From Acidobacteriota bacterium (GTDB lineage Bacteria; Actinomycetota; Acidimicrobiia; Spongiisociales; ZC4RG35): DNA of 64,000 bases. Below, in pieces: positions 26,810-52,546 of the stretch; the first letter of the stretch is position 1; each line of letters opens with the position of its first letter. The notes below the pieces were generated by a model. That model was not told the DNA's origin. It did not search any database and was given only the letters and a program-made list of their open reading frames with translations. The stretch spans positions 48,883 through 112,882 of the forward strand of contig JACZUI010000001.1 of NCBI GenBank assembly GCA_022573225.1. Reading direction: 5' to 3'. The position numbers and the translations under genes were made by a program.

Positions 26810-26812
26810 TAG

Positions 26813-27636: not shown

Positions 27637-28285
27637 CGCCGTCCTCCTCCGATGTCCGCGAGTCACGCACATCCTGGGTCGGTTCCGGATCCCAGTTTCC
27701 CGGACCGGGAGTTCCCCTCCACATCTCGACGCCCTCGTAGGCGGCAACACCTGACGGCGAGGTCGCCTTGAGCCAACCATCCGCGGTATCGAGCTCTCCC
27801 AGATCGGCAAGCTCGTCTTCCGGGAACATGTGCGGAACCTTGCCGACAGGATCCATCAGCAGAGTCTCTCTGGTGTAGATCGCATCCTCGCGATTCGTCG
27901 TGGACATCTCGAAGAGAGAAGTCATGGTGATGGCCTCGGTCGGACAGGCCTCCACACACAACCCGCAGAAGATGCACCTCAACATGTTGATCTCGTATAC
28001 GAATCCGAAGCGCTCGCCAGGCGAGGTGGGATTCGCGGGATCGTTGTCCTGTCCGCGCACGTAGATGCACTTGGCCGGACAAGCGCCCGCGCACAGCTCA
28101 CAACCGATGCACTTCTCCATGCCGTCCGGGTAACGATTGAGAACGTGTCGCCCGTGGAATCGCTGCGGCTTCTCCCTCATCTCTTGGGGGTACCTGGTCG
28201 TGACCAACTCCGAGCCTGTGATGGTCCCGATCATGATTCGGCCGGTGACCCGCAGGCCCTTGAATAGTTCTCTCAATACGCCCAC
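27629..28285 (-). CDS. nuoI: NADH-quinone oxidoreductase subunit I (operon 2), with C-terminal extension
   Basis: GTG start at 28285, 2 nt after the nuoH stop. 4Fe-4S motifs [12 protein letters not shown] and [12 protein letters not shown]. About 70 extra acidic/Gly-Pro-rich C-terminal residues. Confidence 0.9.
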
Positions 28286-28287
28286 GA

Positions 28288-31817: not shown

Positions 31818-33229
31818 GCGGGGCTGCCTTCTCCTGGGGGACGACCCCCAGATCCCCGCTCGCGCCTCGTCTCGACGGCCAAGACTTCCGGGCGATCAAT
31901 GTCAGTTTCAGAGTTGGAGGCCCCTCGCGCAGCTGTGCCCAGCGGGCACCGGCCGAGACGGACGTGCTCCATGACCTCGTCCCTGAAGTAGTCGCGAAGG
32001 GCAATCACCGGGGATACCGCCGATGGCCCCAGCGGGCAGATGGTCGTCATCTTTGGGGGCCAAGCCAGCCCGATACTGATGCCGTCGGAAACATCGAGGA
32101 GTAGGTCGAGGTCGACTTCACGGCCCTGGCCTTCTTCGATTCGGCGGAGGATCATCTCCATCCAGGTGGTTCCTTCGCGACACGGGGTGCACTGGCCGCA
32201 TGATTCATGTGCGAAGAAACGGACCAGTCTCTCCGCCGCACGAACCGTGCATGTGGTCTCGTCCATGACGATGACGGCGCCAGATCCCAGCATCGAGCCG
32301 GCCCCTTCGGTCGCCTCCTTCGTGATCTCGAGGTCGAGATGCTGCGCAGGCACGAACCACGGCGCCGAGGCGCCGCCCGGTATCCATGCCTTCAATTTCC
32401 TGTCGTCTCTGATGCCGCCGGCCACTTCATAGATCAGCTCCCGCCATGTGATCCCATGTGCCAGCTCGTAGTTGCCAGGCCCGTTGACATGACCCGACAC
32501 CGAGAACAGGAAGGTCCCGGTATCTGTCTCATGGGCAACCTTGCCGTACTCCTCGGCACCCATGTCGAGTATGTGGGGGAGGTTTGACACCGTCTCGACG
32601 TTGTTCACGATCGTCGGCAACATATAGAGGCCCTTGGCCGCCGGGAAGTAGGGCGGCTTGAGCCTCGGCTCGCCCCGCTTGCCTTCGAGCGAGTTGATCA
32701 GTGCGGTCTCCTCGCCACAGATGTAGGCCCCGCCGCCAAGATGGATGGTTACCTCGAGATCGTGATCGGAGCCAAAGATCCCGCTGCCGAGGTAGCCACA
32801 GGCATACGCCTCGTCAACGGCCGCCTGCACCCGCCTGGCCGACTTCGGATACTCCCCGCGGATGTAGATGAAGGCGTGATGAACCTCATTCGCGATAGCG
32901 GTGATGATGATTCCTTCGACCATCTGGTGGGGATCGCGCTCGAGCAGCTGGCGATCCTTGAAGGTCCCGGGCTCCGACTCGTCTGCGTTGATCACGAGAT
33001 AGGCCGGCCGGGCCGGGGCAAGGAAGCTCCACTTGAGGCCCGCCGAGAATGCCGCCCCTCCCCGACCCAGCAGACCGGAGGCCTTTACGGTGTCGACGAG
33101 CTCGTCTCGTGTCATGCCCACGGCTCGACGCGCCTGGACATATCCGCCCGTGTCCTCGTAGACATCGATCCTGTGGGAGTCGGCTGGGTGATCGATCATC
33201 CTCCTGGTGACTATGAGTGCCGCGCTCAC
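31814..33229 (-). CDS. nuoF: NADH-quinone oxidoreductase subunit F (operon 2)
   Basis: GLLGRGGAAFSAGLKW (FMN/NADH site) and ESCGQCTPCREG (N3 cluster). About 45 aa of low-complexity C-terminal tail. Confidence 0.9.
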   Translation of the reverse strand: MSAALIVTRRMIDHPADSHRIDVYEDTGGYVQARRAVGMTRDELVDTVKASGLLGRGGAAFSAGLKWSFLAPARPAYLVINADESEPGTFKDRQLLERDPHQMVEGIIITAIANEVHHAFIYIRGEYPKSARRVQAAVDEAYACGYLGSGIFGSDHDLEVTIHLGGGAYICGEETALINSLEGKRGEPRLKPPYFPAAKGLYMLPTIVNNVETVSNLPHILDMGAEEYGKVAHETDTGTFLFSVSGHVNGPGNYELAHGITWRELIYEVAGGIRDDRKLKAWIPGGASAPWFVPAQHLDLEITKEATEGAGSMLGSGAVIVMDETTCTVRAAERLVRFFAHESCGQCTPCREGTTWMEMILRRIEEGQGREVDLDLLLDVSDGISIGLAWPPKMTTICPLGPSAVSPVIALRDYFRDEVMEHVRLGRCPLGTAARGASNSETDIDRPEVLAVETRRERGSGGRPPGEGSPA

Positions 33230-33849
33230 TCGCCGACCTCGGTTCCCACGGTTCCCAGGGGTTGGAATGCCGGGTAGGGCCCGATTGCCCCGTCAACCTC
33301 GGAGACCGCCCAATCGAAACTCCTCACCCCACCGAAAAGCTCCTGCATCTCGTCGGTGTTCACGACTTCTGGGCGGGCGCTTCTCAGCCAATTGACCAGA
33401 TCTCTGGCCTTCTCCGAGGTCACCCCCTCGATGAGCTCGTAGTTGACTTGCACCGCCGGCGCGCCGCCGCAGGCGCCGATGCACTCGACGTGCTCGACCG
33501 AGAGCAGCCCCTCATCGTCGGTCTCCCCATGGGGAACGCCCGACTCGTCCTCGACTGCATGGAGTATGTCGTCGCCACCGAGAAGCATGCAGGAGATGGA
33601 AGTGCAGCAAGAGACGAGGTAGCGACCTGTCTTCTCCCGCTTGTACATCGTGTAGAAGCTGGCAACCGACCGAACCTGGGCGGGGGTGATGCCCACCCAA
33701 AGAGCGACTTCTTCCATCCCCTCGTCAGTGAGATATCCGTCTTCGGCCATTGCCAGGTACAGCAAGGGCATCACGGCGGACCGCTTCTCCGGATACCGGG
33801 AAATGATCTCTTTGGCCCTGACCTGGGTCTCCTCAGACCAGATGCTCAT
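33226..33849 (-). CDS. nuoE: NADH-quinone oxidoreductase subunit E (operon 2)
   Basis: 2Fe-2S motifs VSCCTSISCMLLGG and CIGACGGAPAVQVN. Confidence 0.9.
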   Translation of the reverse strand: MSIWSEETQVRAKEIISRYPEKRSAVMPLLYLAMAEDGYLTDEGMEEVALWVGITPAQVRSVASFYTMYKREKTGRYLVSCCTSISCMLLGGDDILHAVEDESGVPHGETDDEGLLSVEHVECIGACGGAPAVQVNYELIEGVTSEKARDLVNWLRSARPEVVNTDEMQELFGGVRSFDWAVSEVDGAIGPYPAFQPLGTVGTEVGE

Positions 33850-35195
33850 CTATCGACATCCCCCATCACGGGATCCATCGACGCGATGGTGGCGACCGTG
33901 TCCGCCATGAGGGAATCCGCCATGGTGATCGGCAGCGCCTGGAGATTGGCAAACGACGGTGCCCGGGTGTGCATCCGGTACGGCATGGCGCCACCGTCGG
34001 AAACCAGGTAGCAGCCAAGCTCGCCGCGCGGGGACTCCACCGCAACATAGGTCTCCCCCTCCGGCACCTTGAAACCCTCGGTGAAGAGCTTGAAATGATG
34101 GATCAAGGCCTCCATCGACTCGTCGATCCGAGCTCTGGGCGGCGGAGTGACCTTTCGATCGTCGACCCGGTAGTCGCCCTTCGGCATGGCGTCCATCACC
34201 TGTTCGACGATCTTGAGCGACTCGTGCATTTCGTCCACCCTCACGCGGTAACGGTCGTAGACATCTCCTTTTGACCCCAGCGGAACATCGAACTCGTAGT
34301 TCTCAATGCCCGAGTAAGGGAACGCCTTGCGCAGATCCCAGTCGACTCCGGTCGCGCGAAGCGCCGGCCCGGTGATCGCGTACCCGATGGCCTCCTCGGG
34401 TGTGATCACCCCAACGCCCTTCGTTCGTGAGAGCCAGATGGGGTTATTCCGGAGAAGATCGTCGTATTGGGCGAAACGAATCGGCATCTCCTCGAGAATC
34501 ACGGCGATGTCGTCCTTCCATCCAGGATGAAGGTCGGCCGCCACACCCCCGGGTCGGATGTAGTTGTGGTTCATCCGGAGACCGGTGGTCTTCTCCAGGA
34601 AATCGAGAATCAACTCCCTCTCCCGGAAACCGTAGATCATCATCGACACGGCACCGATGTCCATCCCATTCGTCGCCAGAGCGACAAGGTGGGAGGACAC
34701 CCGGTTCAACTCCGTCATGAGGATCCGAATCGCGTCGGCACGAGGCGGCACCTCGACCCCCATGAGCTCCTCCACGGCAAGGCAATAGGCCAACTCTCCG
34801 TGAAGCGGAGCGAGATAATCCATCCTGGTGACGTTGGTTGTCCCCTGGCTGAACGTGAGCCCCTCCGCTGTCTTCTCCATGCCCGTATGCAGGTACCCGA
34901 TGATCGGCTTGGACCTTCTGATGATCTCGCCCTCGAGTTCGAGCTGAAGCCGAAGGACGCCGTGGGTCGACGGATGCTGGGGCCCCATATTGACGATCAT
35001 TCGCTCGCCGTCATCGACCACTTCATCGAACAAGTAATCGTCCTCGACAACCCGACCGAACTGAGCGTCGAGGCGGCTCTCCGACTCCTCGGCGGAGATC
35101 TCCTGGGCGCCCTCGTCGGTAGGAGCGAACTGGGACTCCTCAGTTCCCGCGATCCAGAGGTCGACGGTCTCGGTCGACTTGGTCTCGTCACTCAT
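33846..35195 (-). CDS. nuoD: NADH-quinone oxidoreductase subunit D (operon 2), with acidic N-terminal extension
   Basis: 449 aa with NMGPQHPSTHGVLRL, C-terminus DPVMGDVDR, and about 55 acidic residues ahead of the conserved core. Confidence 0.9.
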   Translation of the reverse strand: MSDETKSTETVDLWIAGTEESQFAPTDEGAQEISAEESESRLDAQFGRVVEDDYLFDEVVDDGERMIVNMGPQHPSTHGVLRLQLELEGEIIRRSKPIIGYLHTGMEKTAEGLTFSQGTTNVTRMDYLAPLHGELAYCLAVEELMGVEVPPRADAIRILMTELNRVSSHLVALATNGMDIGAVSMMIYGFRERELILDFLEKTTGLRMNHNYIRPGGVAADLHPGWKDDIAVILEEMPIRFAQYDDLLRNNPIWLSRTKGVGVITPEEAIGYAITGPALRATGVDWDLRKAFPYSGIENYEFDVPLGSKGDVYDRYRVRVDEMHESLKIVEQVMDAMPKGDYRVDDRKVTPPPRARIDESMEALIHHFKLFTEGFKVPEGETYVAVESPRGELGCYLVSDGGAMPYRMHTRAPSFANLQALPITMADSLMADTVATIASMDPVMGDVDR

Positions 35196-35196
35196 C

Positions 35197-35667
35197 TCAA
35201 TTCACCTGATGGCTCGCCTTGAACTGAACAGGCACCGAACCCACGCCAAAGTCCTTGCGCAGGGGGTGTCCCTCCCAGTCGTCTGGCATGAGGATCCGGG
35301 TCAGGTCTGGATGCCCCTCGAACACGACACCGAACATGTCGTAGGCCTCCCGCTCTGCGAAATCGGCCCCGGGCCAGAGCGGGACCAGGGACGCCACCAC
35401 CGGCTCCTGGCGGGGGGCTGTGGTGATCATGCGAAGTCTGGCTCGATGCTGCATGGAGAGCAGGTTCGCGACGACCTCGTATCGCTCGGGCCGCGACCGC
35501 ATCCGATCGACAACAGTGACATCAACGCAAACCTCGAAACCCGCTGCCTTCGCCGAACTGGCGAAACCCAACCAGTCGGCGTTTTCGACTCGGGCTACGT
35601 CCTGACCGTGGGAGTCCTCCAGGGTGACCTGCTCGAACTCTGCGACCAGCTTCTCAACAATCCTCAC
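35197..35667 (-). CDS. nuoC: NADH-quinone oxidoreductase subunit C (operon 2)
   Basis: GTG start at 35667 overlapping the nuoB TGA. Contains [20 protein letters not shown]. Confidence 0.85.
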
Positions 35668-36131
35668 CTGACTATCTCCCCGCTCATGATCTTGTCGTGC
35701 AACGTGAGGATGCCGTGCAGGAGGCTTTGCGGTCCTGGCGGGCATCCCGGCACGTAGATATCAACGGGAACAATCTGGTCGACACCCTGCACCAGCGCAT
35801 AGTTGTTGAACATCCCGCCCGTAGAGGCACAGGCGCCCATGGAAACCACCCACTTGGGGTCGGGCATCTGGTCATAGACCTGACGCAGCACCGGCGCCAT
35901 CTTCTGGCTGACCCTGCCTGCGACGATCATCAGATCCGCCTGGCGGGGCGAGGCTCGGAAGACCTCCATCCCAAATCGGGCCATGTCATAGTGCGCGGCG
36001 CCCGTCGCCATCATCTCGATCGCGCAGCACGCCAGACCGAAGGTGGCTGGCCACATCGAACGAGTGCGGGCCCACCGCGCTGCCCTTTCGATGGTGGTCA
36101 TCATCAGATTGCCAGGGGCCGTAATTGGCAC
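35664..36131 (-). CDS. nuoB: NADH-quinone oxidoreductase subunit B (operon 2)
   Basis: [22 protein letters not shown] and [10 protein letters not shown]. Confidence 0.9.
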
Positions 36132-36153
36132 TAGTGCCCCGTCTCAAGAACCA

Positions 36154-36576
36154 CTAGGCCGCCTCATCAACCGCGTCGGATGGCAGGTAACGGGAACGCT
36201 GTCTGACGTTCCAATCGAGCGCGCCACGCTTCCACACGTACGCAAGCGTCTCGAAAACGAAGAAGGTGAAGATGAGGATCGCTCCGACGCCAAACCAGCC
36301 AAGCCTGACGTATATAGAGGCCCACGCGAAGAGGAAGATGATCTCGACGTCGAAAATGACGAAGAGCATGGCCACCAGATAGAACTTCACCGGGAATCGT
36401 TGGATCGGCTCTACCTCGGGAACAATGCCGCATTCGTAGGGATCCAACTTCTCGGGGGTGGGTCGGTCGGGTCGAACGAACCTTGACGCAACCAGGGAGC
36501 CGACCACAAAAAGACCAGCCAGTACCAGCATGAGAGCGATCGGGAGATAGTCGGCGAGCGTCACGCTGTCGAGCAT
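36154..36576 (-). CDS. nuoA: NADH-quinone oxidoreductase subunit A (operon 2)
   Basis: Start at the internal ATG at 36576 (MLDSVTLADYLPIALML...), with YECGIVP and FVIFDVEIIFLFAWA. Confidence 0.85.
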   Translation of the reverse strand: MLDSVTLADYLPIALMLVLAGLFVVGSLVASRFVRPDRPTPEKLDPYECGIVPEVEPIQRFPVKFYLVAMLFVIFDVEIIFLFAWASIYVRLGWFGVGAILIFTFFVFETLAYVWKRGALDWNVRQRSRYLPSDAVDEAA

Positions 36577-39994: not shown

Positions 39995-40618
39995 ATGAGC
40001 GAGCTTCCCCGGGCGACGGTCGTCCGCCTGCCCCGGTATCTCCGACTACTCGACGACATCAGCCGGTCCCGAGAGACCGTCAGCTCAGACCAGTTGGCCG
40101 AAGCCGCGGGAGCCAACGCCGCCAATGTGCGGAGGGATCTCTCCTACCTCGACTTCCACGGAGTCAGGGGTGTTGGATATTCGGTGACGGAATTGCGAGA
40201 TCGAATCCGCCGCGAGCTGGGCATTGCATTCCGGCGCAACGTCGCCATTGTCGGCGCCGGCAACCTGGGGCGGGCTCTCGCCAACTACGGAGGGCTGAGC
40301 CGCAGGGGGTTTGATGTCGTCGCCGTCTATGACAAAGACGACGCGGCGATCGGCTCAACGATCGGAAAGCTCTCCGTCAGAAACGTTCAGAAGCTCACCG
40401 ACGACTGTTCCAATGGGGACTTCGACATGGCAATCCTGGCGGTACCCGCGGTGGCCGCGCAACAAGTCACCGACCAGCTGGTCGAGGCGGGCATCGAGAC
40501 GATCCTCAACTTTGCCCCGATCAGGGTCGGTGTGCCCGACACAGTCACAGTCCGACAAGTGGACCTTTCGATGGAACTCCAGGTCCTCAGCTATTACGGA
40601 CGCCGAACTCTCGCTTAG
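39995..40618 (+). CDS. rex: Redox-sensing transcriptional repressor Rex
   Basis: ATVVRLPRYLRLL winged-helix N-terminus, and IVGAGNLGRALANY Rossmann NADH sensor domain. Confidence 0.9.
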   Translation: MSELPRATVVRLPRYLRLLDDISRSRETVSSDQLAEAAGANAANVRRDLSYLDFHGVRGVGYSVTELRDRIRRELGIAFRRNVAIVGAGNLGRALANYGGLSRRGFDVVAVYDKDDAAIGSTIGKLSVRNVQKLTDDCSNGDFDMAILAVPAVAAQQVTDQLVEAGIETILNFAPIRVGVPDTVTVRQVDLSMELQVLSYYGRRTLA

Positions 40619-40995
40619 GCGGTCGACTTCTCTTGGAGCTCCTCGTACTGGTGGAGCGCCACCAAGAAGACGAGGAAGAGCACAAACGTCACCAGCATGT
40701 AAGTGATCGGGATGATCCGAATCTCAAAGGCGTTGAGCCCTTCGATGTCGTCGGGCTTGGGGCCCCGAGGGGCATAGATGACAAACAACATCGAGGTGAT
40801 CGTGAGCCACCCAAAAATTCCGGCCCCGGTCACGAGAAAGCCGAGTTTCTTACCGAGGTTGGTGTAGTTGAAGAGATAGATCGAGCCAAAGAACAACAGC
40901 ACCGCCGCAAGAGTGAGGACCACTCCGGTGATGAAGAGGTTCGCAGAGAACAGTGATCGGAACAGCTCACGGAAGAAATCGCCCTGCATCGTCAA
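40615..40995 (-). CDS. Small membrane protein (126 aa), last gene of the Rieske/cyt b operon
   Basis: 3-4 TM helices. Its ATG overlaps the cytochrome c stop (ATGA). No recognisable motif. Confidence 0.55.
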   Translation of the reverse strand: MTMQGDFFRELFRSLFSANLFITGVVLTLAAVLLFFGSIYLFNYTNLGKKLGFLVTGAGIFGWLTITSMLFVIYAPRGPKPDDIEGLNAFEIRIIPITYMLVTFVLFLVFLVALHQYEELQEKSTA

Positions 40996-42896
40996 CCCTT
41001 CCCATCCATGTTACCGGCGCGTACGTAGGTGGCCAGCAGCCTGATGTCGTCCGCCGGCAAGATTGCGCCGAAGGCCGGCATCCTGCCGGATCCGAACCCG
41101 TTCAGGCCATAGGGCGTCTCAGATCGTGACCCGAGCACCAGGAACTGGATCAGCAAGTCATCCGTATCCGGTGTCACAGCCTCGCCGAATTGGACCAGGG
41201 GCCGACCGTCCCATAGCGCCGGGCCAAACCCTCCGGATCCTGCCTCCTGGGTATAGGAAAGGCCGGCGCTCCACCCGGCAGTGTGACAACGGGCACAGTT
41301 GGCGTTGAACAGGCCGACCGCCCGCGCCGCATCGGCTTCGTCGACGCCCATCGACGCCGCCACTCCCGCGATGTCAATCTCGTACGACTTTGACTCGGCG
41401 GCCGCCTCGAGAAACTCGAGTCCGCTCTCCTCGGCCTCCAGGAGTTGGTCGATGTTCTCCGCCGAGACGCTCAACGACGTCGCCAGAGATTGGAGGTTGC
41501 CGACAAAGGTGCTGGCCGTTCGTTGATCGGGCTGACCTCCAACCGACTCCGGGTTCAGCGGGTCGAGGTCGATCTCGATTATCTGAGGGGGAACGGTCTT
41601 CGCTCCGGCATCGGCTACCTGATTGGTTATGTCATTCTCAGCCGCAGTGGAGAAACCGTCGCCATCGGGATCGGAACCGGCATCTACGATTACAGCCGCA
41701 TCGGTGGCCATTGTCCCCGCGTCGGTCGGGGCATCCTCGGCGGCCGCTGCCTCCTCGAGAGCAGCCACCAGCGACTCCCCCGCTTCAACAGTGTCGTACG
41801 GCCCGCTGGGCACCGATATGCCGGCCTCGGCAGCCTGGTCGGCAATCGTCACCAACCCCGATGCTGCGGTGGAATCGAGCCCACCCGGCTCGACACTTCC
41901 CGTGTCTATCGCCTCATTCACGGCAACCAGATTCGTGACGACGATGGGGTCGGTGTCGAGAGCGGCCTCGAGTGTCGCAACTGCCTCGTCTGCCTTCTCG
42001 GCATCGGCCACCTGTGGATCCATGACAATGGGATCGACCACAGTGAACCCCTCGACCGCCTCCCTGGAGATTGCCGACAACTCGGCTTCTGCCGAGTCGG
42101 AAAGACCATCGTCATCGGTGTCGATCCCCTCTTCGGCCCCATCGAGCACCTCATCGGCCTGTTCTGCCAGCGGTTCCAGGAATTCGGAGTCTTTCGGCGC
42201 CTGCTTGACTTCGGCGACGACCTGAGCCTGAGTCAGGATTGCCGCGGCGACGATTGCGTCGGCATTCTCGAGCTTGGTCAACTCAACGCCCACCGGGCTC
42301 GGAATCTCATTGACGGCCTCAGCCTGCGGGATCTGGATCGTTCCCAGGTAATTGACGACATCGACGACCTGGGCCTCGTTGAGTGGACCGCCACCCGCAA
42401 GGCCCCACGCAGGCATCGGGGTGTTGCCCCGGCCAAAAGTGACCCAGAAGTTGAGCTCGTCATCGTCGTACCGATAGCCGACATCGTTCAGCGAGGGCGC
42501 CGACCAGGCAACATTGACGCCAGACCTCTTCTCGATGTAGGAAGCCGTGCCCCCGACACCCTCAGGACCGTGGCAGCTGAAACAGGCGAACTCTTCGACC
42601 AGATGTGCTCCGCGCTCGACTGACTCCTCATCGAACTGCTCTACGAATCCCTCCTGGCGGGCAGGCTCGGTGAGGAAATAGATCGGAAGCGAAAGAGCGA
42701 GAAAGGCAGAGAATGCGATAGCCGCTTTCTGGCCTGTCTCCAGACGCCGGGTCTCCATTTCCTGGTCGGTCGTTCCCGGACGGAGATTGTGGGGAACTTC
42801 CTCACTGCCGCGATTTCGGATGGCCGAGACGAACAACACGCCAAGCCAAACGATGCCAACGACAACGGCAATAACAGCGACAACGTTTCCGGTCAT
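40992..42896 (-). CDS. Membrane-anchored dihaem cytochrome c with a long acidic linker (QcrC-like role)
   Basis: N-terminal TM helix. Two CxxCH motifs (CFSCHG and CARCHT) separated by an Asp/Glu/Ala-rich segment of about 330 aa. Confidence 0.8.
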
Positions 42897-43798
42897 GCCT
42901 CCGCCTCGGCCGTCGCCGCGATGCAGCTGGGGCCCTGCGGGTAGTCAACGCTTCGAAACGGGGCGCGGGGGGTCTCGATGATGGACCCGGTCTTGATTAT
43001 GAAGTTGTTGCCGCGCAGTTCCACGACGAATCGATCGAGATTTCGCGGGGCGGGACCTGCGAAGTATTCACCGATCGAGTTGTACTTGGAGCCGTGACAG
43101 GGGCACTCGAAACCCTGAGACGGACCACACCAGGGAACTCGGCAGCCAAGGTGGACACATCGCTGAAACAAAGCCATGAGCCCCGCTGCCTCGACTGACT
43201 TTCCCTCGAACTGCTCGCTCAACGAATCCGGCGCCGGGACCAGGTAGGTGCGCGCCTCTGGGATGAACAGCGGCAAGACCGATCCGTCCGGAGCCAATAC
43301 CTTCTTCTGCAGATCCCCCACCGGGCCGGCATCCACGTCGGCGCCAAACCCACCAGTCAACTTGGGCCAGAAGAACGCCAGCGAGTTGAGGCCCATCAGG
43401 GCCAGAAACGATCCGAAGGTGACAGTTATCGCGCGATTGAAGAACTGTCGTCTTGACACTCCCCCTTCTTCTGCGGAGACCTCGACGATGCGCTGGGTCT
43501 CGACGACGTGGACGGCGACAGGCTCGTTGTCCTCCTCCTCGGCGGTGAGGTCTGAGCCGACCTGTTCCTCCGCGGGAGGTGAGTCCTCTGGCTCCGAATC
43601 GGGCACTGATACGGCAATCGGCTCGACCCGGACCCCTGCCATCGACTTGTCGGCGGCCCTGGTTTCTGCAGACACACCGGCCGTGGGGTCTTGCTTCTCC
43701 TGCTGTTGAGAACGACGGAAGGCGACTGCGAACGCGCCAGCCGCCCCAAGGATGGCGATGGCTGCGACAGCGATCAATGCGAGGTTGGCGACGGTCAT
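42893..43798 (-). CDS. Rieske 2Fe-2S subunit
   Basis: [10 protein letters not shown] and CPCHGSKY boxes. Internal twin-arginine motif [10 protein letters not shown] preceded by an extra TM helix and an acidic segment. Confidence 0.9.
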
Positions 43799-44796
43799 TC
43801 GAAATCCACCCAGTCCTTGAGGTCGTCAAAGAAGATCCCGTCCTTCCATGGATAGGTGAAGTTGAAGCCTCTTCCTCTGAACAGGACCCCGATCAAGGTC
43901 AGCGTCCCCGCGCCAACCATGAACATCGAATAGAGAAGGATCGCGAACTTGCGGTCGCTGGGACGCGTCGACGGGTTCTTGTCGACGAATGGGATCATCA
44001 TGAAACCGATGATCCCGGTGATGGTCGGCACCGTGACACCGGCGATCTGCGGATCGAAGTAGGAGAGAAGCTCTTGAAGGCCAAGGAAATACCAAGGCGC
44101 CTTTGACGGATTCGGGGTGGAGTTGACGTTTGCCGGGTCAAGCAACGGGGAAAAGATGATCACCGACATGATGACGAGCAGACCGGTTATGGCGAGCAGG
44201 GCCCCGAACTCCATCAGCATCAAGTGTGGCCACGTGTTGACTTTGTCCGTCGGCTCTGCTTTGACGGTCTGAATCGCCCTGGCCTTGACAACTGTGAGGA
44301 GTCGCGCCGTTCTCACACCTTCGGGTGTGCCCGCCGGCGGCACACTAGGCCGAGGGCTCACCACGGCCGCTAGTTTGTCATTGCCGGATCCATCGACCTC
44401 AGCAAGCGGTTGCTCATCCTCGACGATCGTGGCCACCGCGGCGGGAGGGACAGCTTCCTCGGCCTGCTCCTCCGAGCGGGGCGAGACAGCCTCCTCGGCC
44501 TGCTCCTCCGAGCGGGGCGAGACAGCCTCCTCGGCCTGCTCCTCCGAGCGGGGCGAGACAGCCTCCTCCACCTGCTCATCAGCGGCGTCAGCCGACGCGG
44601 CGTCTGCCTGCCCTGCGGAAGCGCCGGGGCTCGGTTCGTCCGAGAGGGGCGACACAGCCCCCTCATCAGAAGCAGGCACCTCGATTGGGGGGCCTTCCCC
44701 TTTCATCTCGGCAAGAACTTGCTCGACCGGCACTCCGAGCGCCTTGGCCTTGGCTTCTGCAGATCTTCTGAGAAGACTCTCTGGGATCTCTGTCAC
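43795..44796 (-). CDS. Cytochrome b C-terminal domain / subunit IV-like protein with a long N-terminal extension
   Basis: The C-terminal ~170 aa carries the PEWY-type motif ([13 protein letters not shown]). The N-terminus has a ~35-aa module shared with two cytochromes c in the window, plus a 12-aa tandem repeat. Confidence 0.8.
44449..44569. repeat. 36-bp tandem repeat, 3.3 copies, in-frame within the subunit IV-like gene
   Basis: GACAGC(C/T)TCCTCGGCCTGCTCCTCCGAGCGGGGCGA x3 plus a partial unit. It encodes ([12 protein letters not shown])n. Confidence 0.9.
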
Positions 44797-44864: not shown

Positions 44865-45641
44865 TCAGAGCGGCCCTGAGATGCCGCCGTCCTTGCGCAC
44901 TCGCCAGAAGTGGACTGCAAGGAATAGCACTAAAATGAAGGGAAACGCGAGCACATGAAGCACATAGAACCTGAGAAGTGTCGCCCCTGATACCTCTAAC
45001 GAGCCCAGCAGAGCGAACTTGACCTGACCACCGACGACGGGGATGAACCCGGCCATGTTGGTGCCCACAGTGACCGCCCACAGAGCCAACTGATCCCAAG
45101 GGAGCAGATACCCGGAGAAGGAGAGGAAGAGGGTCAGGAAGAGGAGCAGGACCCCAATCACCCAGTTGAACTCGCGGGGGGGCTTGTACGCGCCGTGATA
45201 GAAGACCCGGCTCATGTGGAGGAACACGGACAACACCATCAGGTGTGCTCCCCAACGATGCAGGTTCCTCACCAGCGTCCCGAAGGCCACATTGGTCGAG
45301 AGCGCCTGAATATCGGTGTAGGCGGCCTCCGCCGACGGCGTGTAATAGAACATGAGAAAGATGCCGGTGATGGTCAGAAGGATGAACAGGAAAAAAGACA
45401 GGCCTCCCAGACACAGGGTGTAGGAGAGCTTGACCCCGTGCCGCTTCACTTTCACCGGGTGGAGGTGATAGAGCACGTTGTTCATCACCACGTACGAGCG
45501 GTTCCTGGGGCTGTCGGAGTACCCCTTCTTAAAGGGTGAGCCCGGCCTGAGGATCGCCTCGACCACCTGGGAGCCCCAGAGCTTCTCGTTCGTCTCCTTG
45601 ATCTTGTCCTTCAAACCGGTCTTGCCGTCGCCGTCAGCCAA
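44865..45641 (-). CDS. Cytochrome b6-type (N-terminal domain only) cytochrome b
   Basis: Four haem-ligand His in two pairs: [11 protein letters not shown] and [23 protein letters not shown]. 258 aa, ending before the PEWY region. Confidence 0.85.
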
Positions 45642-45649
45642 GACGCCTC

Positions 45650-46099
45650 CTACCAGCGCATTCCATATGAATAGCCATTCTTGAAGTCACGTTGCCCGGT
45701 GTCGAAATCCCAGGGCCGTCGATCGAGGCCCAGCTCGACCGACTGGTCGGCCAAGGAGCCTTCGAACTTCCCGAGAGTGATGACATTGGTGGGACATCGG
45801 TCGATGCAGAGAGCGCACCTGGTGCACTCGTCCTCATCAACGATGAAGAACCCGAAATTCTGAGAGTCATCCCCCGGATGGTCGACGTTGACGCCTTCAT
45901 CGATCGCATCGAGAGAGAGGTAGTGGATGCACTTCCACGGGCAAATGTCGACGCATCCCTCGCAAATGATGCACTCGGACTGATCGATGTGGAGAAACTG
46001 CTTGGGACGAAGCTTGTCCTTGAAGTAATCGCCATCCACAACGGCGAGCTGATAATCGTCTCTGACCGGTGGGGTCTCATCCACAACTCCGCGCGGCAT
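45650..46099 (-). CDS. 2x[4Fe-4S] ferredoxin-domain protein
   Basis: [12 protein letters not shown] and [12 protein letters not shown]. Its start overlaps the stop of the upstream membrane protein gene. Confidence 0.8.
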
Positions 46100-46779
46100 C
46101 AGGTGTCACCCTTGACCAGCGGACGTCCGTAGGGAGACTTGGGTTGAGGCTTCTCGGCGGACGGCGGCCGACCCTGGTACATCTTCTGAAGCTGTAGGGC
46201 GAAAATCCCGCCGCCGGCCAGGATGGCGATGTGGTACCCCATCGAGATCGAGTCCTTTAGGGCGGCGTAGCTGAGGTCGACCTCGTTGCCAAGGACGAGG
46301 AATGGGGGAATCACGATGGCAACTCGTTGGCTGGACCAATCGAGATCGGTCTGAGCAAAGTTGAGCCACTCCGACGGAACCATGGCGAACAGCATCACCA
46401 GCTCGATCCAGGTGATGAATGAGGCAAAAGCGGCACGTGCCCAGGTCATCTTCTGGTTGAGCACCCAAACGAAGAGCGCGCCCAGGAGCAGCATCTGCGA
46501 AGCAGCAAAGGCTGCCAGGTATCCGATGCCCTTCCAGATCGCTCCGCGGGGAACCCAGTTGAAACTGTCGAGTACGACGGGAACGATCTCACCATCGACG
46601 ATCTCGTTTTCCGGGAAACTGGAGAAGTGAATCCACCAGACAGCCAGGATCAAGGTCACGAATCCAGTCAACAGAAGACCCCAGCCTATGGTCTTCCGTC
46701 TTCTGTCCTTTAGCTCTGCGAGGCGGTACATCTCTTCCTGTTCGGGCGCGACGGTGTGAGTGCAGGACCGTTTTACCAC
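46099..46779 (-). CDS. Hypothetical 4-TM membrane protein, first gene of the Rieske/cyt b operon
   Basis: 226-aa ORF (an alternative start at Met17 is possible). Hydrophobic helices, no recognisable motif. Confidence 0.5.
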   Translation of the reverse strand: MVKRSCTHTVAPEQEEMYRLAELKDRRRKTIGWGLLLTGFVTLILAVWWIHFSSFPENEIVDGEIVPVVLDSFNWVPRGAIWKGIGYLAAFAASQMLLLGALFVWVLNQKMTWARAAFASFITWIELVMLFAMVPSEWLNFAQTDLDWSSQRVAIVIPPFLVLGNEVDLSYAALKDSISMGYHIAILAGGGIFALQLQKMYQGRPPSAEKPQPKSPYGRPLVKGDT

Positions 46780-46896
46780 AACCTGGGTCGCCTAAGTGAA
46801 CCGACGACGCCAAAAAACCTGGCAAAGCGTGACGACCGACCGATTCACCGAAGCAGTTATGCTCCCGCCGTCGCGTCCGCGAAGCGAGGAAGCCCC

Positions 46897-48333
46897 GTGG
46901 CAGCTAGGCAATCTGGAGACATTCGAACCCTTCTCGGAGGGGGTACGGAAGAGGATCGCGTCTCCATCGCACACTTTCTGGTCGGCGCGGCCTTTCTAGC
47001 CATCGGCGGGCTGATCGAAGTGATCGCGATGTTCTCGCTTCGCTTCGCCGACATATTTCCGGTGAGCTTTGGCCGCCTCGAGTCGATGGCCAATCTCACT
47101 CTCATGATGGGCTTCGCCGTGATCTCCTTGCTGGGTGGGATCTACTATGTCCTTCCCCGGTTGACGGGAACCAGACTCTGGAGCGTCCGTCTGGCCCGGG
47201 TGTCGCTCTTCTTGATTTCGGTCGTCGTATTGGGCGGGCTCCTGACAATCGGGTTTGGCTTGGGAGCAGGCCGACAGCCGTTCGGGTTGCCGTGGTGGAT
47301 CCACCTTCCCTTGGTTTTCGCACTCGCCGTACCGGCCATCATCACCATCGGCACAATCTCGAGACGGCAGGAGACTCGTAGCTTCGTGACTCTCTGGTTC
47401 GTGATCGGCGGGGTTGTCTGGCTGCCTCTCCTATACCTGGCCTATTTTGCCGGCGATCTCCCCGGACTCGGTTCTGTCGCCGTCGCATACTCAGATCTCT
47501 TCTTCACGGCCGGTTTCCTGACAATGTTCGTCTTCACCGTCGGCACAGGGCTGACCTATTACACCGTGGTCAAGGAGATCGACATACCTCTTGCTTCCCG
47601 GCAACTCGCGGTGGTCGGGTTCTGGTCGTTGGGCTTCGCAGGGGTGTGGTGGGGTGTCGCCCAGCTCGTATTCGGCCCGGGCCCGACCTGGGTTGCCGGA
47701 GTCGCAGCCGCCTTGGGCCTCGCATTCCCCATTGGCGCGTTGGCCAATGCCTCCAACCTGTCGCTGACTCTCGAAGGGCACTGGGAGAAGCTCAGCGACA
47801 AGCCCGGGGTCACGGCCGGAGTTCTTGGCGCGTACATGGCCGTGGTTGTTGCCCTCATGGCCAGCTTCGCATCATTTCCGACCATCGGATCCGTCACGGC
47901 GCTCACTGCCTACTGGGAGGCCGTGGAGTATGCCGCCCTTCTCGGCGTGGGGACTCTGCTGGTCGCGGGAATCTCGTTCGAGGCGCTCCCCCGTGCCGCC
48001 GGGCGTCGTCTGCCCACAACCGACCGGGCACGATCCTTCAACCGACTCACGGTAATCGGAGTTGGCGGTGTCCTCGTGAGCCTCACCGCCGCGGGTCTCA
48101 TCAGTGGCTACTCATGGCTTGGCGGTTCCAACAGCGCTGCGTACATCGACGTCGGTGACGGATGGGCAGCCGGGTCGGGCGCGACAGAAGCCCTCACGCT
48201 GATTGCGCTTGGATTTGCCCTCGTCACCTTCCTCGGCCAGCTCGCCTATGTCTCTGTTGTCGCCGGCACCGTGTTCTCCGGTCGGGCGGTCACCCAAGAT
48301 CTACTGGTTGAGGTGAGCGCGACCGATGAGTGA
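46897..48333 (+). CDS. cbb3-type haem-copper oxidase subunit I (CcoN)-like protein lacking the metal-ligand histidines
   Basis: About 12 TM helices. It aligns by eye with CcoN/FixN blocks: FGRLESMANLTLMMGFA against FGRLRPLHTxAVIFAFG; DLFFTAGFLTMF against GHNAVGFFLTAGFLGM; LAVVGFWSL against LSIVHFWAL. The His positions are replaced, and there are only 3 His in about 478 aa. Start set at the GTG at 46897. Confidence 0.6.
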   Translation: MAARQSGDIRTLLGGGTEEDRVSIAHFLVGAAFLAIGGLIEVIAMFSLRFADIFPVSFGRLESMANLTLMMGFAVISLLGGIYYVLPRLTGTRLWSVRLARVSLFLISVVVLGGLLTIGFGLGAGRQPFGLPWWIHLPLVFALAVPAIITIGTISRRQETRSFVTLWFVIGGVVWLPLLYLAYFAGDLPGLGSVAVAYSDLFFTAGFLTMFVFTVGTGLTYYTVVKEIDIPLASRQLAVVGFWSLGFAGVWWGVAQLVFGPGPTWVAGVAAALGLAFPIGALANASNLSLTLEGHWEKLSDKPGVTAGVLGAYMAVVVALMASFASFPTIGSVTALTAYWEAVEYAALLGVGTLLVAGISFEALPRAAGRRLPTTDRARSFNRLTVIGVGGVLVSLTAAGLISGYSWLGGSNSAAYIDVGDGWAAGSGATEALTLIALGFALVTFLGQLAYVSVVAGTVFSGRAVTQDLLVEVSATDE

Positions 48334-49084
48334 TCTGCTCACGGCTGCCGCCACCGCACTCGGAACACCGGAAACCCTTGTACAGAGGTCGGCAGAGGCC
48401 CGAGCGGCAGCGACCGGTGGCACCGTCGATGAGATCCTTTCGGCGTGGGCCGGCGGCGAAACAATCGCAACTCCCAGCCCGGAGCCAGTCGAAACCCCTG
48501 CCGAAGCGCCAGCCGTGGAGCCCGCTACTGCCGAGCCGACACCTGAGCCCGAGGCGGCGGTCGCGGTAATCGAGGCCCCCGTGGTCGCGGCGGCTCGCCC
48601 GGTGGAGGCCCCCGCCGTGCCCGGGCAACCGCCGGTCCTGGTGGGCACATCCGACAACCCGATGAACATTCTCGTGGCTGCGATAGGCCTGTTTGTCGCC
48701 ATCTTGCTGCTTGGATTGGTGGGACCGTCTGTCCCCTTGGACAACCCCGGTGCCAGGTCGTCGGAGATCGCACACTCGGAGGCCGGCGAAGCCGGGCAAA
48801 CCCTCTACGCGAGCGTGGGTTGTGCAGCCTGTCATACCCAAATGGTTCGCCCGATAGTCTCTGACGTCGGTCTCGGCGCGGTTTCGCTCAACGACTCCAA
48901 CCAGATCCTTGGAACCCGCAGATTTGGGCCTGATCTCTCTGACATAGGCAGTCGTAAAACCGGAACCGAGATCGAAGCGATCATCGGTGGGTTCGGAGGC
49001 CACAGTGATCTCGGTCTCTCCTCGACTGACATGGACAACCTCGTTACCTATCTGCTCGAATCGTCCACCTCGGAGTCCAGATGA
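48326..49084 (+). CDS. CcoO/FixO-like monohaem cytochrome c
   Basis: GQTLYASVGCAACHTQMVRP ... RRFGPDLSDIGSRK matches the CcoO pattern (CxxCHSQxxRP ... GPDL..xG.R). One TM helix, an Ala/Pro/Glu linker, and the shared N-terminal module. Confidence 0.65.
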   Translation: MSDLLTAAATALGTPETLVQRSAEARAAATGGTVDEILSAWAGGETIATPSPEPVETPAEAPAVEPATAEPTPEPEAAVAVIEAPVVAAARPVEAPAVPGQPPVLVGTSDNPMNILVAAIGLFVAILLLGLVGPSVPLDNPGARSSEIAHSEAGEAGQTLYASVGCAACHTQMVRPIVSDVGLGAVSLNDSNQILGTRRFGPDLSDIGSRKTGTEIEAIIGGFGGHSDLGLSSTDMDNLVTYLLESSTSESR

Positions 49085-50121
49085 GCGAAGCACTATCGGC
49101 AGCCAGTGCCGCTCTTGGTATTCCGGAAGACCTGGTGCAACGCTCGGCGGCCGCACGAGCCACCGAGACAGGGATGTCAGTCGACGAGGTTCTCGCCGCC
49201 TGGGCCGGTGGCGGAGCGATCGCTGCCGCGCCGGTCACTCCCCCTGCCGAGTCACCCGAGCCCGAGGCTCAACCCGACATTGAAACATCCGACGATCCCA
49301 CACCTGCCTCCGCGACGGTTACCGAACCTGCTCCGACCGAACCTGTTGTCGCCACCAGGGCCCCAGTGCCCTCTGAGGTCAGCGCGGCGGAGGCGGCGAC
49401 CCTTGCTGAGGTCATCACCGTGCCGACGGCGGGTATAAGGGAACGAACCAACTTCGCCATTCCCAGGTGGCTGACGGCCGTGATGCTGATCATTCCGGCC
49501 TTCGCTCTCTTCGCTCTGGGCGGTGCTGCAACCGGAACCTGCGGAGAGGCAACTGAGCTCGATGCCAACATCGTGACAGGCCAGATCGTCAACTGCGACG
49601 GGTCGGAGTTCACCGGCTCGGGAGTCAGCGGAGGATCGACTGATTTCATTGCCGAAGGCGAGGCCATCTACATGGGGACAGGTGTCAGCGGAGTCAACTG
49701 CTCCGGGTGTCACGGCGTCAGCGGCGGCGGCGGCGGAGCAGGCCCACCGTTGACCGCAGTCGTAATCACATTCGGATCCTGCCTGGACCAGGTCGAGTGG
49801 GTCACCATCGGCACTCCCGGATTCCAGGCGGCAGGACGATCAACCTATGGCGATACCGGCAAACCGGTGGGCGGCGCGGGAGTCATGCCGCCGCACCAGT
49901 CGCTGAGCGCCGAGCAGGTGGCATCCGTCGCTGCCTTTGAGCGAGTTCGATTTGACGGGGCCGACCCCGAGACCACCCTCACAGATTGCGGTCTGGCACC
50001 CGAAGAAGAGTCGGAGGGTGGCGAATCCGAAGGTGAGGGCGGCGACAGCGAACCGGGGACGACCGACGAGACCCCAGAAACCGACGAATCGACTGCGGCA
50101 AACGTTGCCGCGATGCACTAG
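49081..50121 (+). CDS. Membrane-anchored monohaem cytochrome c with acidic C-terminal tail
   Basis: CSGCHGVSGGG haem motif, one TM helix (WLTAVMLIIPAFALFALGG), and the shared N-terminal module MSEALSAASAALGIPEDLVQRSAAARATETGMSVDEVLAAWAGG. Confidence 0.75.
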   Translation: MSEALSAASAALGIPEDLVQRSAAARATETGMSVDEVLAAWAGGGAIAAAPVTPPAESPEPEAQPDIETSDDPTPASATVTEPAPTEPVVATRAPVPSEVSAAEAATLAEVITVPTAGIRERTNFAIPRWLTAVMLIIPAFALFALGGAATGTCGEATELDANIVTGQIVNCDGSEFTGSGVSGGSTDFIAEGEAIYMGTGVSGVNCSGCHGVSGGGGGAGPPLTAVVITFGSCLDQVEWVTIGTPGFQAAGRSTYGDTGKPVGGAGVMPPHQSLSAEQVASVAAFERVRFDGADPETTLTDCGLAPEEESEGGESEGEGGDSEPGTTDETPETDESTAANVAAMH

Positions 50122-50372
50122 CCGCCCAACCGCCGAAGCGCCCTCCGCAGGGCTCGCCGATCGATTCTTCCCTCGGCTAGCACCTCGCCCGAAGGCCCCA
50201 ACACGACAGGGACCCGGGTTCCATATTCATCACGAAGAGTGGCAATTTGATCGATATCGACATCGACGATCTCCGCACCGGTCACAGCGGTCTCCAGTTC
50301 GAGAATCTGGCGAGCGCTTTCGCAAAGAGAACAACCCTGACGGGTGAGAAACGTGATCATGAAACCGCTCAA
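50118..50372 (-). CDS. Glutaredoxin-like small protein (DUF836-type)
   Basis: ITFLTRQGCSLCESA CxxC motif, about 80 aa. Confidence 0.6.
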   Translation of the reverse strand: MSGFMITFLTRQGCSLCESARQILELETAVTGAEIVDVDIDQIATLRDEYGTRVPVVLGPSGEVLAEGRIDRRALRRALRRLGG

Positions 50373-50761: not shown

Positions 50762-51586
50762 TCATTCAGCTGTGGCAGCTCCTGGCCCCAGCAGGGTGAT
50801 TGCCACGCCCTCTTCGAGGTTGAGGAAGTCGCTGGCTCGTCCGCCTCGCTGAGCCAGGGCCATCAGACCAGCCGAATCCACATGGAGCATCAACTCGCCT
50901 TCTTCGACGTCCGCGTAGGTCGCAACCCAAGGCACGCTGTGGATGACCGCTCCGATCTTTGCCGTCACGACATCGCCCGGAGACAGCCCGAGGAGGCCAA
51001 GCTCGTCCGGTCCGATGTTGGATTCAACATTCCCGAACCAGTCGATCCACCAGGCTTCGCCCACGACCGACCCATCTCTGACGTCGGGAAGCGGCAGCAA
51101 CAACGGTCGAATCCGGTCTGAGGCCAAATCGGGACCGAGGTCGCCGAGGGAAGCCTCGCCCGAGGCTAGGAGAGCAGCCGCAGGGGCGAAGACATCCCTG
51201 CCTTGAAATGTCGCACCGGGTGAAGGGATCATGGCTTCCGGGTTCTCGATCGCGACGATCTGCGTTGCGCCACCGACCATCGCCACCGCAGGCGAAAGGA
51301 CGCCATTGTCGGGACCGACGAAATAGCCCCACTCGGTGGTCAGGGCAAGGGCGTGGCGTTCCGAGCCGACTCCAGGATCGACGACGACGAGGGCGACGCC
51401 CTCCGGGAGGTATTGGATCGCCCGCGTCAGCGAGAGTGCGGCGTGCCTCAAGTTGCCGGGTGGGACCTCGTGGGCGATGTCGATGACCCGAGACTCAGGT
51501 GCGAGCTTTGCCAGCACACCATGCACAACGCCGACAAACTCGTCCTTGTGGCCGAAATCGGAGAGAAAGCTGATCGGAAGGCTCAT
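50762..51586 (-). CDS. SAM hydrolase / SAM-dependent halogenase family protein (DUF62)
   Basis: Start at the internal ATG at 51586: MSLPISFLSDFGHKDEFVGVVHGV, VVVDPGVGSER, and FGNVESN near the C-terminal barrel. Confidence 0.8.
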   Translation of the reverse strand: MSLPISFLSDFGHKDEFVGVVHGVLAKLAPESRVIDIAHEVPPGNLRHAALSLTRAIQYLPEGVALVVVDPGVGSERHALALTTEWGYFVGPDNGVLSPAVAMVGGATQIVAIENPEAMIPSPGATFQGRDVFAPAAALLASGEASLGDLGPDLASDRIRPLLLPLPDVRDGSVVGEAWWIDWFGNVESNIGPDELGLLGLSPGDVVTAKIGAVIHSVPWVATYADVEEGELMLHVDSAGLMALAQRGGRASDFLNLEEGVAITLLGPGAATAE

Positions 51587-51664
51587 TGGGCCCGACGGTA
51601 GACCCCGATGAGTGCTGTTACGAGGCGACGCAGGCTTTCCGACGGAAGGCTTATATTCCGGGCT

Positions 51665-52546
51665 ATGAACGAGCCCGACTTTGAGGCACTGGCACTGGAG
51701 GTTTCCCGCGCTCGCCTCGCCATGCTCATGGGCGGGACCGACACTGGAAAGACCACCCTCGCCCTTCAGGCCGCGCGCCTCGCCGTCAAGGCGGGCCGGA
51801 CCGTGGCGCTGGTCGATGCCGATGTCGCCAACTCCACCGTCGGCCCGCCGGCCTGCGTCGGCTTGAAGGAGATTCACAGCGAGGCCGACCTCGAAACCGT
51901 CTCAGAACCCGACCTTCTCCATTTCGTCGGCACTATCATGCCGGCCCGTTTGGTTCTCCAGCAGGTTGTGGCCACGGTGGCCATGGTCGATCAGGCGCGG
52001 AATCTGGCTGATCTGGTCATCCTCGACACAACCGCCGTCGTTTCCGGCGTCGCAGGAGAGACTCTGAAGTATCACAAGGCAGAACTATGTCGGCCCGACA
52101 AGGTCGTGGCCCTGCAACGAGGAGGAGAGATGGAGCCCGTGGTGGGGATGCTCCGCCGGTTTCTCGGCATGGACATCACTGTCGCCCCCGCAGGCTCCAA
52201 TATCGTCCCGCGGTCGCCAGACGACCAGGCATCTCTCCGCACCGAGGCGTTCCAGCGGGCTCTGGCGCTCCCACTCGATAGGTGGAAGGTGCGGCCAACC
52301 GTGTTTGCTCCCACCCTGCCGATGGGGCTCAACTTGGATCGGTTGAATCAGGTACTCGTCGGCGTCCAGGACGCCGCCGGGAACTGTGTAGGTCTGGGCG
52401 TACTCGAGCATGGGGAAGGGGCGCTGCGAGTTCTGACCAATGTAGGGGAAGGCATGAAGGGACTGAGGCTGGGCTCGATGACGATCAATCCGGAGACATT
52501 CACATCGACTGTCGTCAACCTCCGCGAAGTGATGTTCGGGGTTTAG
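51665..52546 (+). CDS. Clp1/Grc3-like P-loop protein (putative polynucleotide 5'-kinase)
   Basis: Start at the ATG at 51665. MLMGGTDTGKTTLALQAARLAVKAGRTVALVDADVANSTVGPP, LHFVGTIMP and LVILDTTAVVSG follow the Clp1 P-loop domain layout. Confidence 0.55.
   Translation: MNEPDFEALALEVSRARLAMLMGGTDTGKTTLALQAARLAVKAGRTVALVDADVANSTVGPPACVGLKEIHSEADLETVSEPDLLHFVGTIMPARLVLQQVVATVAMVDQARNLADLVILDTTAVVSGVAGETLKYHKAELCRPDKVVALQRGGEMEPVVGMLRRFLGMDITVAPAGSNIVPRSPDDQASLRTEAFQRALALPLDRWKVRPTVFAPTLPMGLNLDRLNQVLVGVQDAAGNCVGLGVLEHGEGALRVLTNVGEGMKGLRLGSMTINPETFTSTVVNLREVMFGV

Follow-up and report, generated by a model that had tools for sequence, protein, structure and literature searches.

The haem-copper oxidases (HCOs) are defined by a subunit I with six invariant histidines, and in the cbb3-type members of this superfamily the subunit I, CcoN, makes up, together with the cytochrome c subunit CcoO, the core in the assembly of the enzyme. 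The nitric oxide reductases (NORs), both cNOR with its NorB/NorC pair and qNOR, belong to the same branch of the superfamily and their cytochrome c subunit II is a homologue of CcoO; all haem ligands are present in them, and FeB is bound through three His residues and one Glu. Dead enzyme folds do serve as respiratory subunits, such as the core 1/2 MPP-like proteins of the mitochondrial bc1 complex and the cofactor-less membrane subunits of the NrfD/PsrC type; to our knowledge, there is no precedent for a dead structural homologue within the HCO superfamily itself. The cbb3 oxidases are also found joined to a Rieske/cytochrome b complex via membrane-anchored c cytochromes, in the bc1-cbb3 supercomplexes of P. 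aeruginosa (8SMR), R. capsulatus (6XKW) and an alphaproteobacterial one (9G83). The present analysis concerns a stretch of 64,000 nucleotides (the window) of contig JACZUI010000001.1 from an Acidimicrobiia genome assembly, in which a gene on the plus strand at 46897..48333 encodes a 478-residue protein with 12 transmembrane (TM) helices, a homologue of subunit I of the C-family HCOs that has lost all the haem and CuB ligands and is called pseudo-CcoN below.

With CcoN of P. stutzeri (3MK7), pseudo-CcoN has in common the 12-TM fold and the sequence blocks FGRL, YYxxPR, TIxxRxE, YYxVPK...GFW, PxPxW and TLxGxW, and its gene is followed, as in a cbb3 operon, directly by that of a CcoO partner and then by a further cytochrome c gene, natural fusions of the N and O subunits being found as well. 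Unlike CcoN, it is devoid of the six histidine ligands and the cross-link tyrosine, and in the subclade of the window the invariant glutamate of the EYAE motif, which we take to be a Ca2+ ligand of the 3MK7 structure, is lost too. The operon also differs from that of cbb3 in that CcoO is shortened, the third subunit is monohaem, a CcoP-like dihaem cytochrome c sits in a divergent operon, no ccoGHIS-like genes occur in the displayed neighbourhoods of the examined loci, and the gene stands beside an operon for a Rieske protein, a cytochrome b6 and a ferredoxin. The NORs are more distant from pseudo-CcoN than the cbb3 oxidases, and unlike theirs its ligand columns are non-His. In the bc1-cbb3 supercomplexes, CcoN is a working oxidase and the bc part is a bc1 with cytochrome c1 rather than a b6 type with a ferredoxin; such an architecture is proposed as the ancestor of the b6c/pseudo-cbb3 module. 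The bc1 core proteins and NrfD/PsrC would follow the same logic of a fold retained without its chemistry, their folds being unrelated to pseudo-CcoN. The Geobacter Ext cluster (ExtP/ExtQ), b6f and the Bacillus b6c resemble the neighbouring operon in the split b6 and subunit IV, the H-x14-H spacing and the haem ci cysteine; however, the Ext cluster has no CcoN homologue by its NCBIfam names, and the pseudo-cbb3 trio is an addition in Acidimicrobiia.

Assignment of pseudo-CcoN to the cbb3 family

The open reading frame (ORF) of pseudo-CcoN is open from 46756, and the GTG at 46897 was taken as its start because the homologues are mostly of 478 aa and a ribosome-binding site, GAGGAAG, lies 5 nt before it. 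The protein is matched by Pfam COX1 (E=3.8e-19, 69.3 bits with a cutoff of 34.8) and by the NCBIfam ccoN model TIGR00780 (E=1.6e-27, 96.6 bits, which is below the equivalog cutoff of 583.15), and a phmmer search of the PDB returned cbb3 CcoN chains only, including 3MK7 at E=3.5e-12. The hhalign comparison of 58 members of the pseudo-CcoN family with 18 canonical CcoN sequences gave a probability of 100% and E=1.2e-45 over 439 columns. The AlphaFold2 model, with a mean predicted local distance difference test score (pLDDT) of 85 and a predicted template modelling score (pTM) of 0.88, consists of twelve long helices, and in Foldseek it was matched to the P. stutzeri CcoN of 3MK7 with a TM-score of 0.85-0.87 and E~1e-17; the match to cNOR was weaker (E~3e-9, TM-score 0.75-0.8), and the A/B-type oxidases were likewise further off. 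Thus, by both the profile and the structure comparisons, pseudo-CcoN is a real cbb3-type HCO subunit-I homologue, in agreement with an earlier note on this DNA, made from the letters alone, in which the homology to CcoN had been recognized from the remaining sequence blocks.

Loss of the haem and CuB ligands

The ligand positions were mapped by three concordant alignments, namely phmmer against 3MK7, MAFFT with 103 representatives, and hhalign of the family against the canonical profiles. In the P. stutzeri numbering, the ligands of the low-spin haem b, H60 and H347, are replaced by A65 and Y345 of pseudo-CcoN, the haem b3 ligand H345 by V343, the three CuB ligands H207, H257 and H258 by A205, A255 and Q256, and the cross-link tyrosine Y251 by G249. 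The whole protein has three histidines (H26, H136 and H295), none of them at a ligand position, and H26 is the sole one conserved across the family (the 120 best homologues). The count of three histidines, the missing HH pair and the substitution of the ligand positions had all been read correctly in the earlier note, except for one site: the glycine of LAVVGFWSL, counted there as a lost ligand, corresponds to H243 of P. stutzeri CcoN, which is not a metal ligand and is glycine in most canonical CcoN, and the HH pair aligns instead to GVAQLVF, 12-13 residues further on. Because all the haem and CuB ligands are gone, pseudo-CcoN cannot, as judged from its sequence, be a conventional O2 or NO reductase, which is what the earlier note had concluded, and bound haem b, haem b3 and Cu are predicted to be absent along with any O2 or NO reductase activity. 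No cofactor ligand is missing from the partner proteins, which have CxxCH in both cytochromes c, the four histidines and the ci cysteine of b6, the Rieske motifs and the eight cysteines of the ferredoxin; hence only the oxidase subunit was affected by the loss.

The residues that took the place of the ligands vary among the His-less clades (A/F/V/S, A/G/S/T, W/F/A, R/A/S, D/S/N/F/R/E, F/L/T/V and V/L/Y/A), no conserved polar residue was found at or near the old ligand positions across diverse clades of this kind, and the only positions conserved there in at least 90% of sequences are those of Gly, Pro, Trp, Tyr and Thr. Such variable replacements, with no substitute set of ligands conserved, speak for a structural role rather than for another cofactor site common to the clades. 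Two functions had been offered in the earlier note, a catalytically dead scaffold and a cofactor-binding mode not described for the family; the former fits better, and the latter finds no polar residue conserved where the ligands were. Most of the polar positions that the Acidimicrobiia subfamily conserves come from inherited cbb3 motifs located where the helices end on the cytoplasmic side (R88/T90, T153/R157/E159 and R235).

The subclade of the window, taken by itself, has E62, N66, Q256, E341, E344 and Y345 in at least 95% of its sequences, and in the model they would make a protonatable cluster on TM2, TM7 and TM10, level with the lost haem ligands and beneath the CcoO-like haem c. Together with the low ratio of nonsynonymous to synonymous substitution (dN/dS) given below, this cluster would suit an active but unconventional module, which handles a quinone, an ion or a metal via non-His residues, or a haem via Tyr/Glu, with a logic like that of NrfD/PsrC. 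Such a module is considered distinctly improbable: the residues of the cluster are unconserved in the relatives of 38-45% identity and in the fused clades, although their gene context is the same; the adjoining operon already encodes a complete Rieske/b6 quinol oxidase, which makes a second quinol site unneeded; and the metal-insertion genes of the ccoGHIS type were not seen in the displayed neighbourhoods. If it were nevertheless true, the b6c-ferredoxin/pseudo-cbb3 assembly would be a new kind of respiratory complex that converts energy and has an oxidase as its scaffold.

Family breadth and selection

A word-indexed search found 389 relatives of pseudo-CcoN, the best 120 of which (61-99% identity) are similar in length and all without the ligands, and when the representatives of 50%-identity clusters were searched exhaustively, 603 clusters were retrieved at E<=1e-3. 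Among the best 150 of these clusters, 103 representatives were full-length, 63 having none of the six histidines and 23 having all six. In a rough neighbour-joining tree, most of the His-less clusters fall in one large clade that holds both unfused forms (450-500 aa) and FixO-fused forms (610-750 aa). The scan of one genome per species yielded 136 relatives, and the 80 kept were all from metagenome-assembled genomes (MAGs), nearly all labelled Acidimicrobiia or Actinomycetota.

The pseudo-CcoN copies are full-length as a single high-scoring segment pair in 81 of 84 cases, and dN/dS, calculated by the Nei-Gojobori method between sequences that are more than 95% identical in their amino acids, ranges over 0.04-0.16 for this gene (0.063 for the window against locus L004). 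The values of the two cytochrome c partners are looser (0.1-0.3) and those of cytochrome b6 and the ferredoxin tighter (0-0.04). Accordingly, pseudo-CcoN is intact and functionally constrained; the widely His-less homologues and this range of dN/dS show that it is not a product of decay, and the statement of the earlier note that the ORF is intact proved right. A decaying pseudogene, or an error of assembly or frame, might find its example in the one match that is broken at residue 376, but the full-length copies and the low dN/dS rule such a reading out for all practical purposes, the His-less state being, moreover, common to hundreds of sequences from independent projects and the AlphaFold model being a confident one. 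The tests by which the earlier note had proposed to refute itself, i.e., profile search, structural alignment, the intactness of homologues and dN/dS, upheld the homology and the ligand loss and revealed no decay.

The broken match belongs to locus L077 (CAWACX010000002.1), from a Nanopore long-read MAG, where the break is probably a frameshift error and not decay; representative P0122 has a similarly truncated match. As to the taxon labels of L004, L032, L006 and other MFD loci, L004, which is 96% identical to the window, is in a MAG labelled Gammaproteobacteria, L032 is labelled Boseongicola, and many MFD bins are labelled Acidobacteriota; these odd labels on contigs with a cluster of the Acidimicrobiia type are probably due to mis-binning or mis-labelling. 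Near-identical copies of the cluster were noticed on separate contigs of one bin in two bins (L027/L030 and L035/L037).

Partly degenerate CcoN lineages were also met outside the main His-less clade (L097/L098 with P0195, P0168, and L096 with P0242). One of these lineages, in a sporulating Firmicute-like genome, has H60 and H345 both changed to tyrosine, and its operon comprises a ccoN-like gene, a FixO-dihaem c, a cytochrome c, a full-length cytochrome b and a cytochrome b-Fer4 fusion, with ctaA/ctaB upstream. In another one, H60 and H207 are still there, but the HH pair is gone, as are the histidines of TM10. These lineages may represent independent remodelling of oxidases tied to cytochrome b/Fe-S modules.

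Partner c-type cytochromes and a common N-terminal module

The three plus-strand genes had been described in the earlier note as translationally coupled and ordered like ccoNO(Q)P, with two cytochromes c that retain CxxCH and a divergent Rieske/cytochrome b operon beside them, and each of these points was borne out. The gene at 48326..49084 (+) overlaps that of pseudo-CcoN by 8 nt and encodes a CcoO-like monohaem cytochrome c of 252 aa, which is matched by FixO PF02433 (34.6 bits, cutoff 29.6) and by TIGR00781 ccoO at 33 bits, far under its cutoff of 200. It is composed of a cytoplasmic N-terminal module, a P/E/A-rich linker, one TM helix (~residues 110-140) and a haem c domain with CAACH, CHTQMVRP and GxRRFGPDL, soon after which the protein ends early; the CxxCH is kept in 79 of 82 orthologues. 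The window subclade has a GGH segment in place of the SxMPSY Met region, which the fused clade keeps, and one may speculate that this segment hints at a His/His ligation and a lower potential of the CcoO-like haem. The third gene, at 49081..50121 (+), overlaps the second by 4 nt (ATGA) and encodes a membrane-anchored monohaem class-I cytochrome c of 346 aa (Pfam Cytochrom_C and Cytochrome_CBB3), with a TM helix at ~residues 125-154, the haem motif CSGCH, a conserved MP that provides the axial Met, and four conserved cysteines.

Natural fusions of CcoN with FixO (CcoO) are common among the His-less relatives, and the AlphaFold model of one of them, P0165, is a single rigid unit that has, beyond the twelve helices, one more helix as well as a cytochrome c domain (pLDDT 90, pTM 0.93); as far as the models tell, the CcoN-CcoO interface seems to be kept in pseudo-CcoN. 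A FixP_N remnant after FixO in L091 and the CcoP-type domains of the dihaem cytochrome c of the divergent operon point to a descent from ccoNOP.

The N-terminal module is a cytoplasmic segment of ~35 aa, PExL(V/L)xRSAEA(R/K)A..G..V(D/E)(E/Q)(I/V)LA, followed by a Pro/Glu/Ala-rich tether, for which no Pfam match was found. Its copies in the window are at the beginning of the CcoO-like protein (48326-48470, +), of the class-I cytochrome c (49081-49225, +) and, from the other operon, of the cytochrome b subunit IV (44660-44796, -). The module is conserved across the loci, 47 of which have three copies; it was noticed also in L075, L080, L081 and L003, and the subunit IV of L081 has two copies in tandem. 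Its presence in the products of both operons links these products and suggests that they dock to a common partner in the cytoplasm.

The divergent operon and the conservation of the locus

The divergent intergenic region, 46780..46896, holds the ribosome-binding site of the GTG at 46897. The first gene beyond it, at 46099..46779 (-), encodes a conserved membrane protein of 226 aa with 3-4 TM helices, for which no Pfam, NCBIfam or PDB sequence match was obtained; its gene lies beside that of the ferredoxin at 80 of the 83 loci, and it has the invariant motifs MVPSEWLNFAQTDLDW and SPYGRPL. Since the conservation begins at Met17, the annotated start may be too early, and a start at Met17 would widen the intergenic region. 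The next gene, at 45650..46099 (-), encodes a soluble ferredoxin-like subunit of 149 aa for two [4Fe-4S] clusters (Pfam Fer4 families, eight cysteines), which is near-invariant: its identity is 84-97% across 80 loci and still 72% where that of pseudo-CcoN is only 30%, most of its residues occur in at least 95% of the sequences, and its conservation exceeds that of cytochrome b.

The cytochrome b6 type protein at 44865..45641 (-) (Pfam Cytochrome_B, E=3.9e-47) has all four haem b histidines (H-x13-H and H-x14-H) as well as the haem ci cysteine in CLGG, as read from the translation; its best PDB matches are the photosynthetic b6 proteins (E=1.5e-46), ahead of the actinobacterial QcrB (1e-23). 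It also passes the NCBIfam model NF040969 ExtP (297.9 bits, cutoff 290), and an automatic annotation would probably give it a Geobacter Ext name, associated with selenite/tellurite reduction, which probably does not fit its role here. The cytoplasmic Fe-S subunit beside a b6 of the haem ci type suggests an electron exchange on the n-side; no solved structure of a haem ci-type b6 complex with such a subunit was found. The rest of the operon encodes the PetD/ExtQ-like subunit IV at 43795..44796 (-) (Pfam Cytochrom_B_C, NCBIfam ExtQ), the Rieske [2Fe-2S] protein at 42893..43798 (-) (Pfam Rieske and b6f-type NCBIfam matches, with CVHLGC and CPCHGS intact), and the dihaem cytochrome c of 634 aa at 40992..42896 (-), which is matched by Cytochrome_CBB3 over two stretches (E=2.7e-15) and by ccoP TIGR00782 (E=2.9e-9) and whose two CcoP-like haem domains are set apart by a long acidic linker. 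Subunit IV, too, has a linker, which is cytoplasmic and contains a tandem repeat (44449-44577, 36 bp x3.6, 96% matches) with a protein unit of 12 letters.

The synteny was followed by tblastn of nine window proteins over 83 loci. Wherever the contig is long enough, the nine-gene divergent arrangement is present, each gene being found in 64-81 of the 83 loci, and it persists in the subclades where pseudo-CcoN is only 30-35% identical (L001/L002 with the fused form, L003, L086 and L092). The neighbourhood of L086 contains also ResB/CcsA cytochrome c biogenesis genes and nuo. In L084, which has the fused form, ~8 kb of unrelated genes split the two halves, and ctaA/ctaB, for haem A synthesis, follow; the L085 subclade has different surroundings with a multihaem cytochrome, Fe-S proteins and flavoproteins.

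The separation of the two gene sets into divergent operons, and the ~8 kb between the halves in L084, would be compatible with a trio that works outside the b6 complex, as a stand-alone membrane cytochrome c complex in which pseudo-CcoN would still be just the platform of the two c cytochromes, and which would link the b6c complex with oxidases or other periplasmic reductases as a diffusing or independent electron carrier. Membrane-bound carriers are needed where soluble cytochrome c is absent, and the Actinobacteria are known to be without it. However, the near-universal adjacency of the operons across the subclades, and the N-terminal module that subunit IV has in common with the cytochromes of the trio, speak for a closer bond, and the stand-alone carrier is regarded as rather unlikely.

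Proposed role

The reading cautiously taken as probable is that pseudo-CcoN may be a cofactor-less cbb3 relic, retained to give the c cytochromes of a b6c-ferredoxin complex their membrane platform. Its ancestor would have been part of a unit of Rieske/b complex and cbb3 oxidase from which the oxidase chemistry was lost, and the 12-helix subunit would have been retained because the CcoO and CcoP-like cytochromes need a membrane platform. Pseudo-CcoN would then keep the fold and the surface that holds CcoO, would be without haem b, haem b3 and CuB, hence without O2 or NO chemistry, and would anchor and position the two cytochromes encoded after it, the CcoO-like protein and the monohaem c. The trio, together with the Rieske protein, b6, subunit IV, the dihaem c and the ferredoxin, would make one quinol:cytochrome c module derived from a bc-cbb3 supercomplex, in which the electrons would pass from quinol to the Rieske protein, the dihaem c, the CcoO-like protein with the monohaem c, and then to a separate terminal oxidase, e.g., of the aa3 type. 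We infer accordingly the absence of any cofactor in pseudo-CcoN, the physical association of its module with the b6 complex, and this electron route. The dN/dS values reveal purifying selection on a subunit without catalytic residues, and the nine-gene synteny its linkage to the partner complex.

Several points weigh against this role as a cofactor-less platform. The six-frame search of all the loci for a terminal oxidase within 10 kb on either side (GHPEVY, the CuA motif and GPHH) found none. The co-assembly of the trio with the b6 complex is suggested by synteny and the N-terminal module common to subunit IV, both being features of the genes. The mostly small replacements (A/G) at the ligand sites could reflect a tight packing of the helices, but also room for a non-ligated cofactor or a lipid. 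The six residues of the protonatable cluster are conserved in the window subclade at the former haem b site, and dN/dS of ~0.06 is rather low for a mere spacer.

Annotation and meaning

No description of a ligand-less CcoN family or of a pseudo-cbb3 in Acidimicrobiia was found in the full-text literature searches, whose coverage leaves out most subscription journals, and the survey of HCO diversity PMC11214002 does not mention a ligand-less CcoN family. The names given to the family by PGAP and IMG are 'cbb3-type cytochrome c oxidase subunit I' or 'I/II', and in the MAG study PMC8357290, cbb3-type oxidases are recorded for the Acidimicrobiia MAGs. If the cbb3 calls in Acidimicrobiia MAGs rest on the pseudo-CcoN family, the high-affinity microaerobic respiration derived from them is wrong. 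Acidimicrobiia appear in MAG surveys of many habitats, and nearly all that is known of their respiratory chain comes from annotation; pseudo-CcoN appears to be a fixed part of their main quinol-oxidising complex. The combination of a b6-type cytochrome, a near-invariant ferredoxin and pseudo-CcoN points to an undescribed architecture of complex III, and pseudo-CcoN would be the first clear pseudo-oxidase in the HCO superfamily that this analysis is aware of, i.e., a natural experiment on the oxidase scaffold without its redox centres.

Neighbouring genes of the window

The cluster is flanked by the genes of a Rex-type redox-sensing repressor at 39995..40618 (+), with Put_DNA-bind_N and CoA_binding domains, a glutaredoxin-like protein at 50118-50372 (-) and a SAM hydroxide adenosyltransferase at 50762-51877 (-), and these three adjoin it even in the distant subclade (L001, L002 and L092). 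The search for the Rex operator (TGTGAA-N6-TTCACA, with up to 3 mismatches) gave 8 matches where 13 were expected, none of them in 46780-46896; since no operator stands above chance, there is no evidence of Rex control despite the conserved rex neighbour. Two further sets of respiratory genes were noticed on the minus strand of the window: a full nuo operon at ~20500-36200, assigned from the ORF sizes and from the nuo genes beside related loci, and a second complex I-like set at 2026-11000, in which a 49-kDa subunit and a Fer4 protein accompany three Proton_antipo_M subunits.

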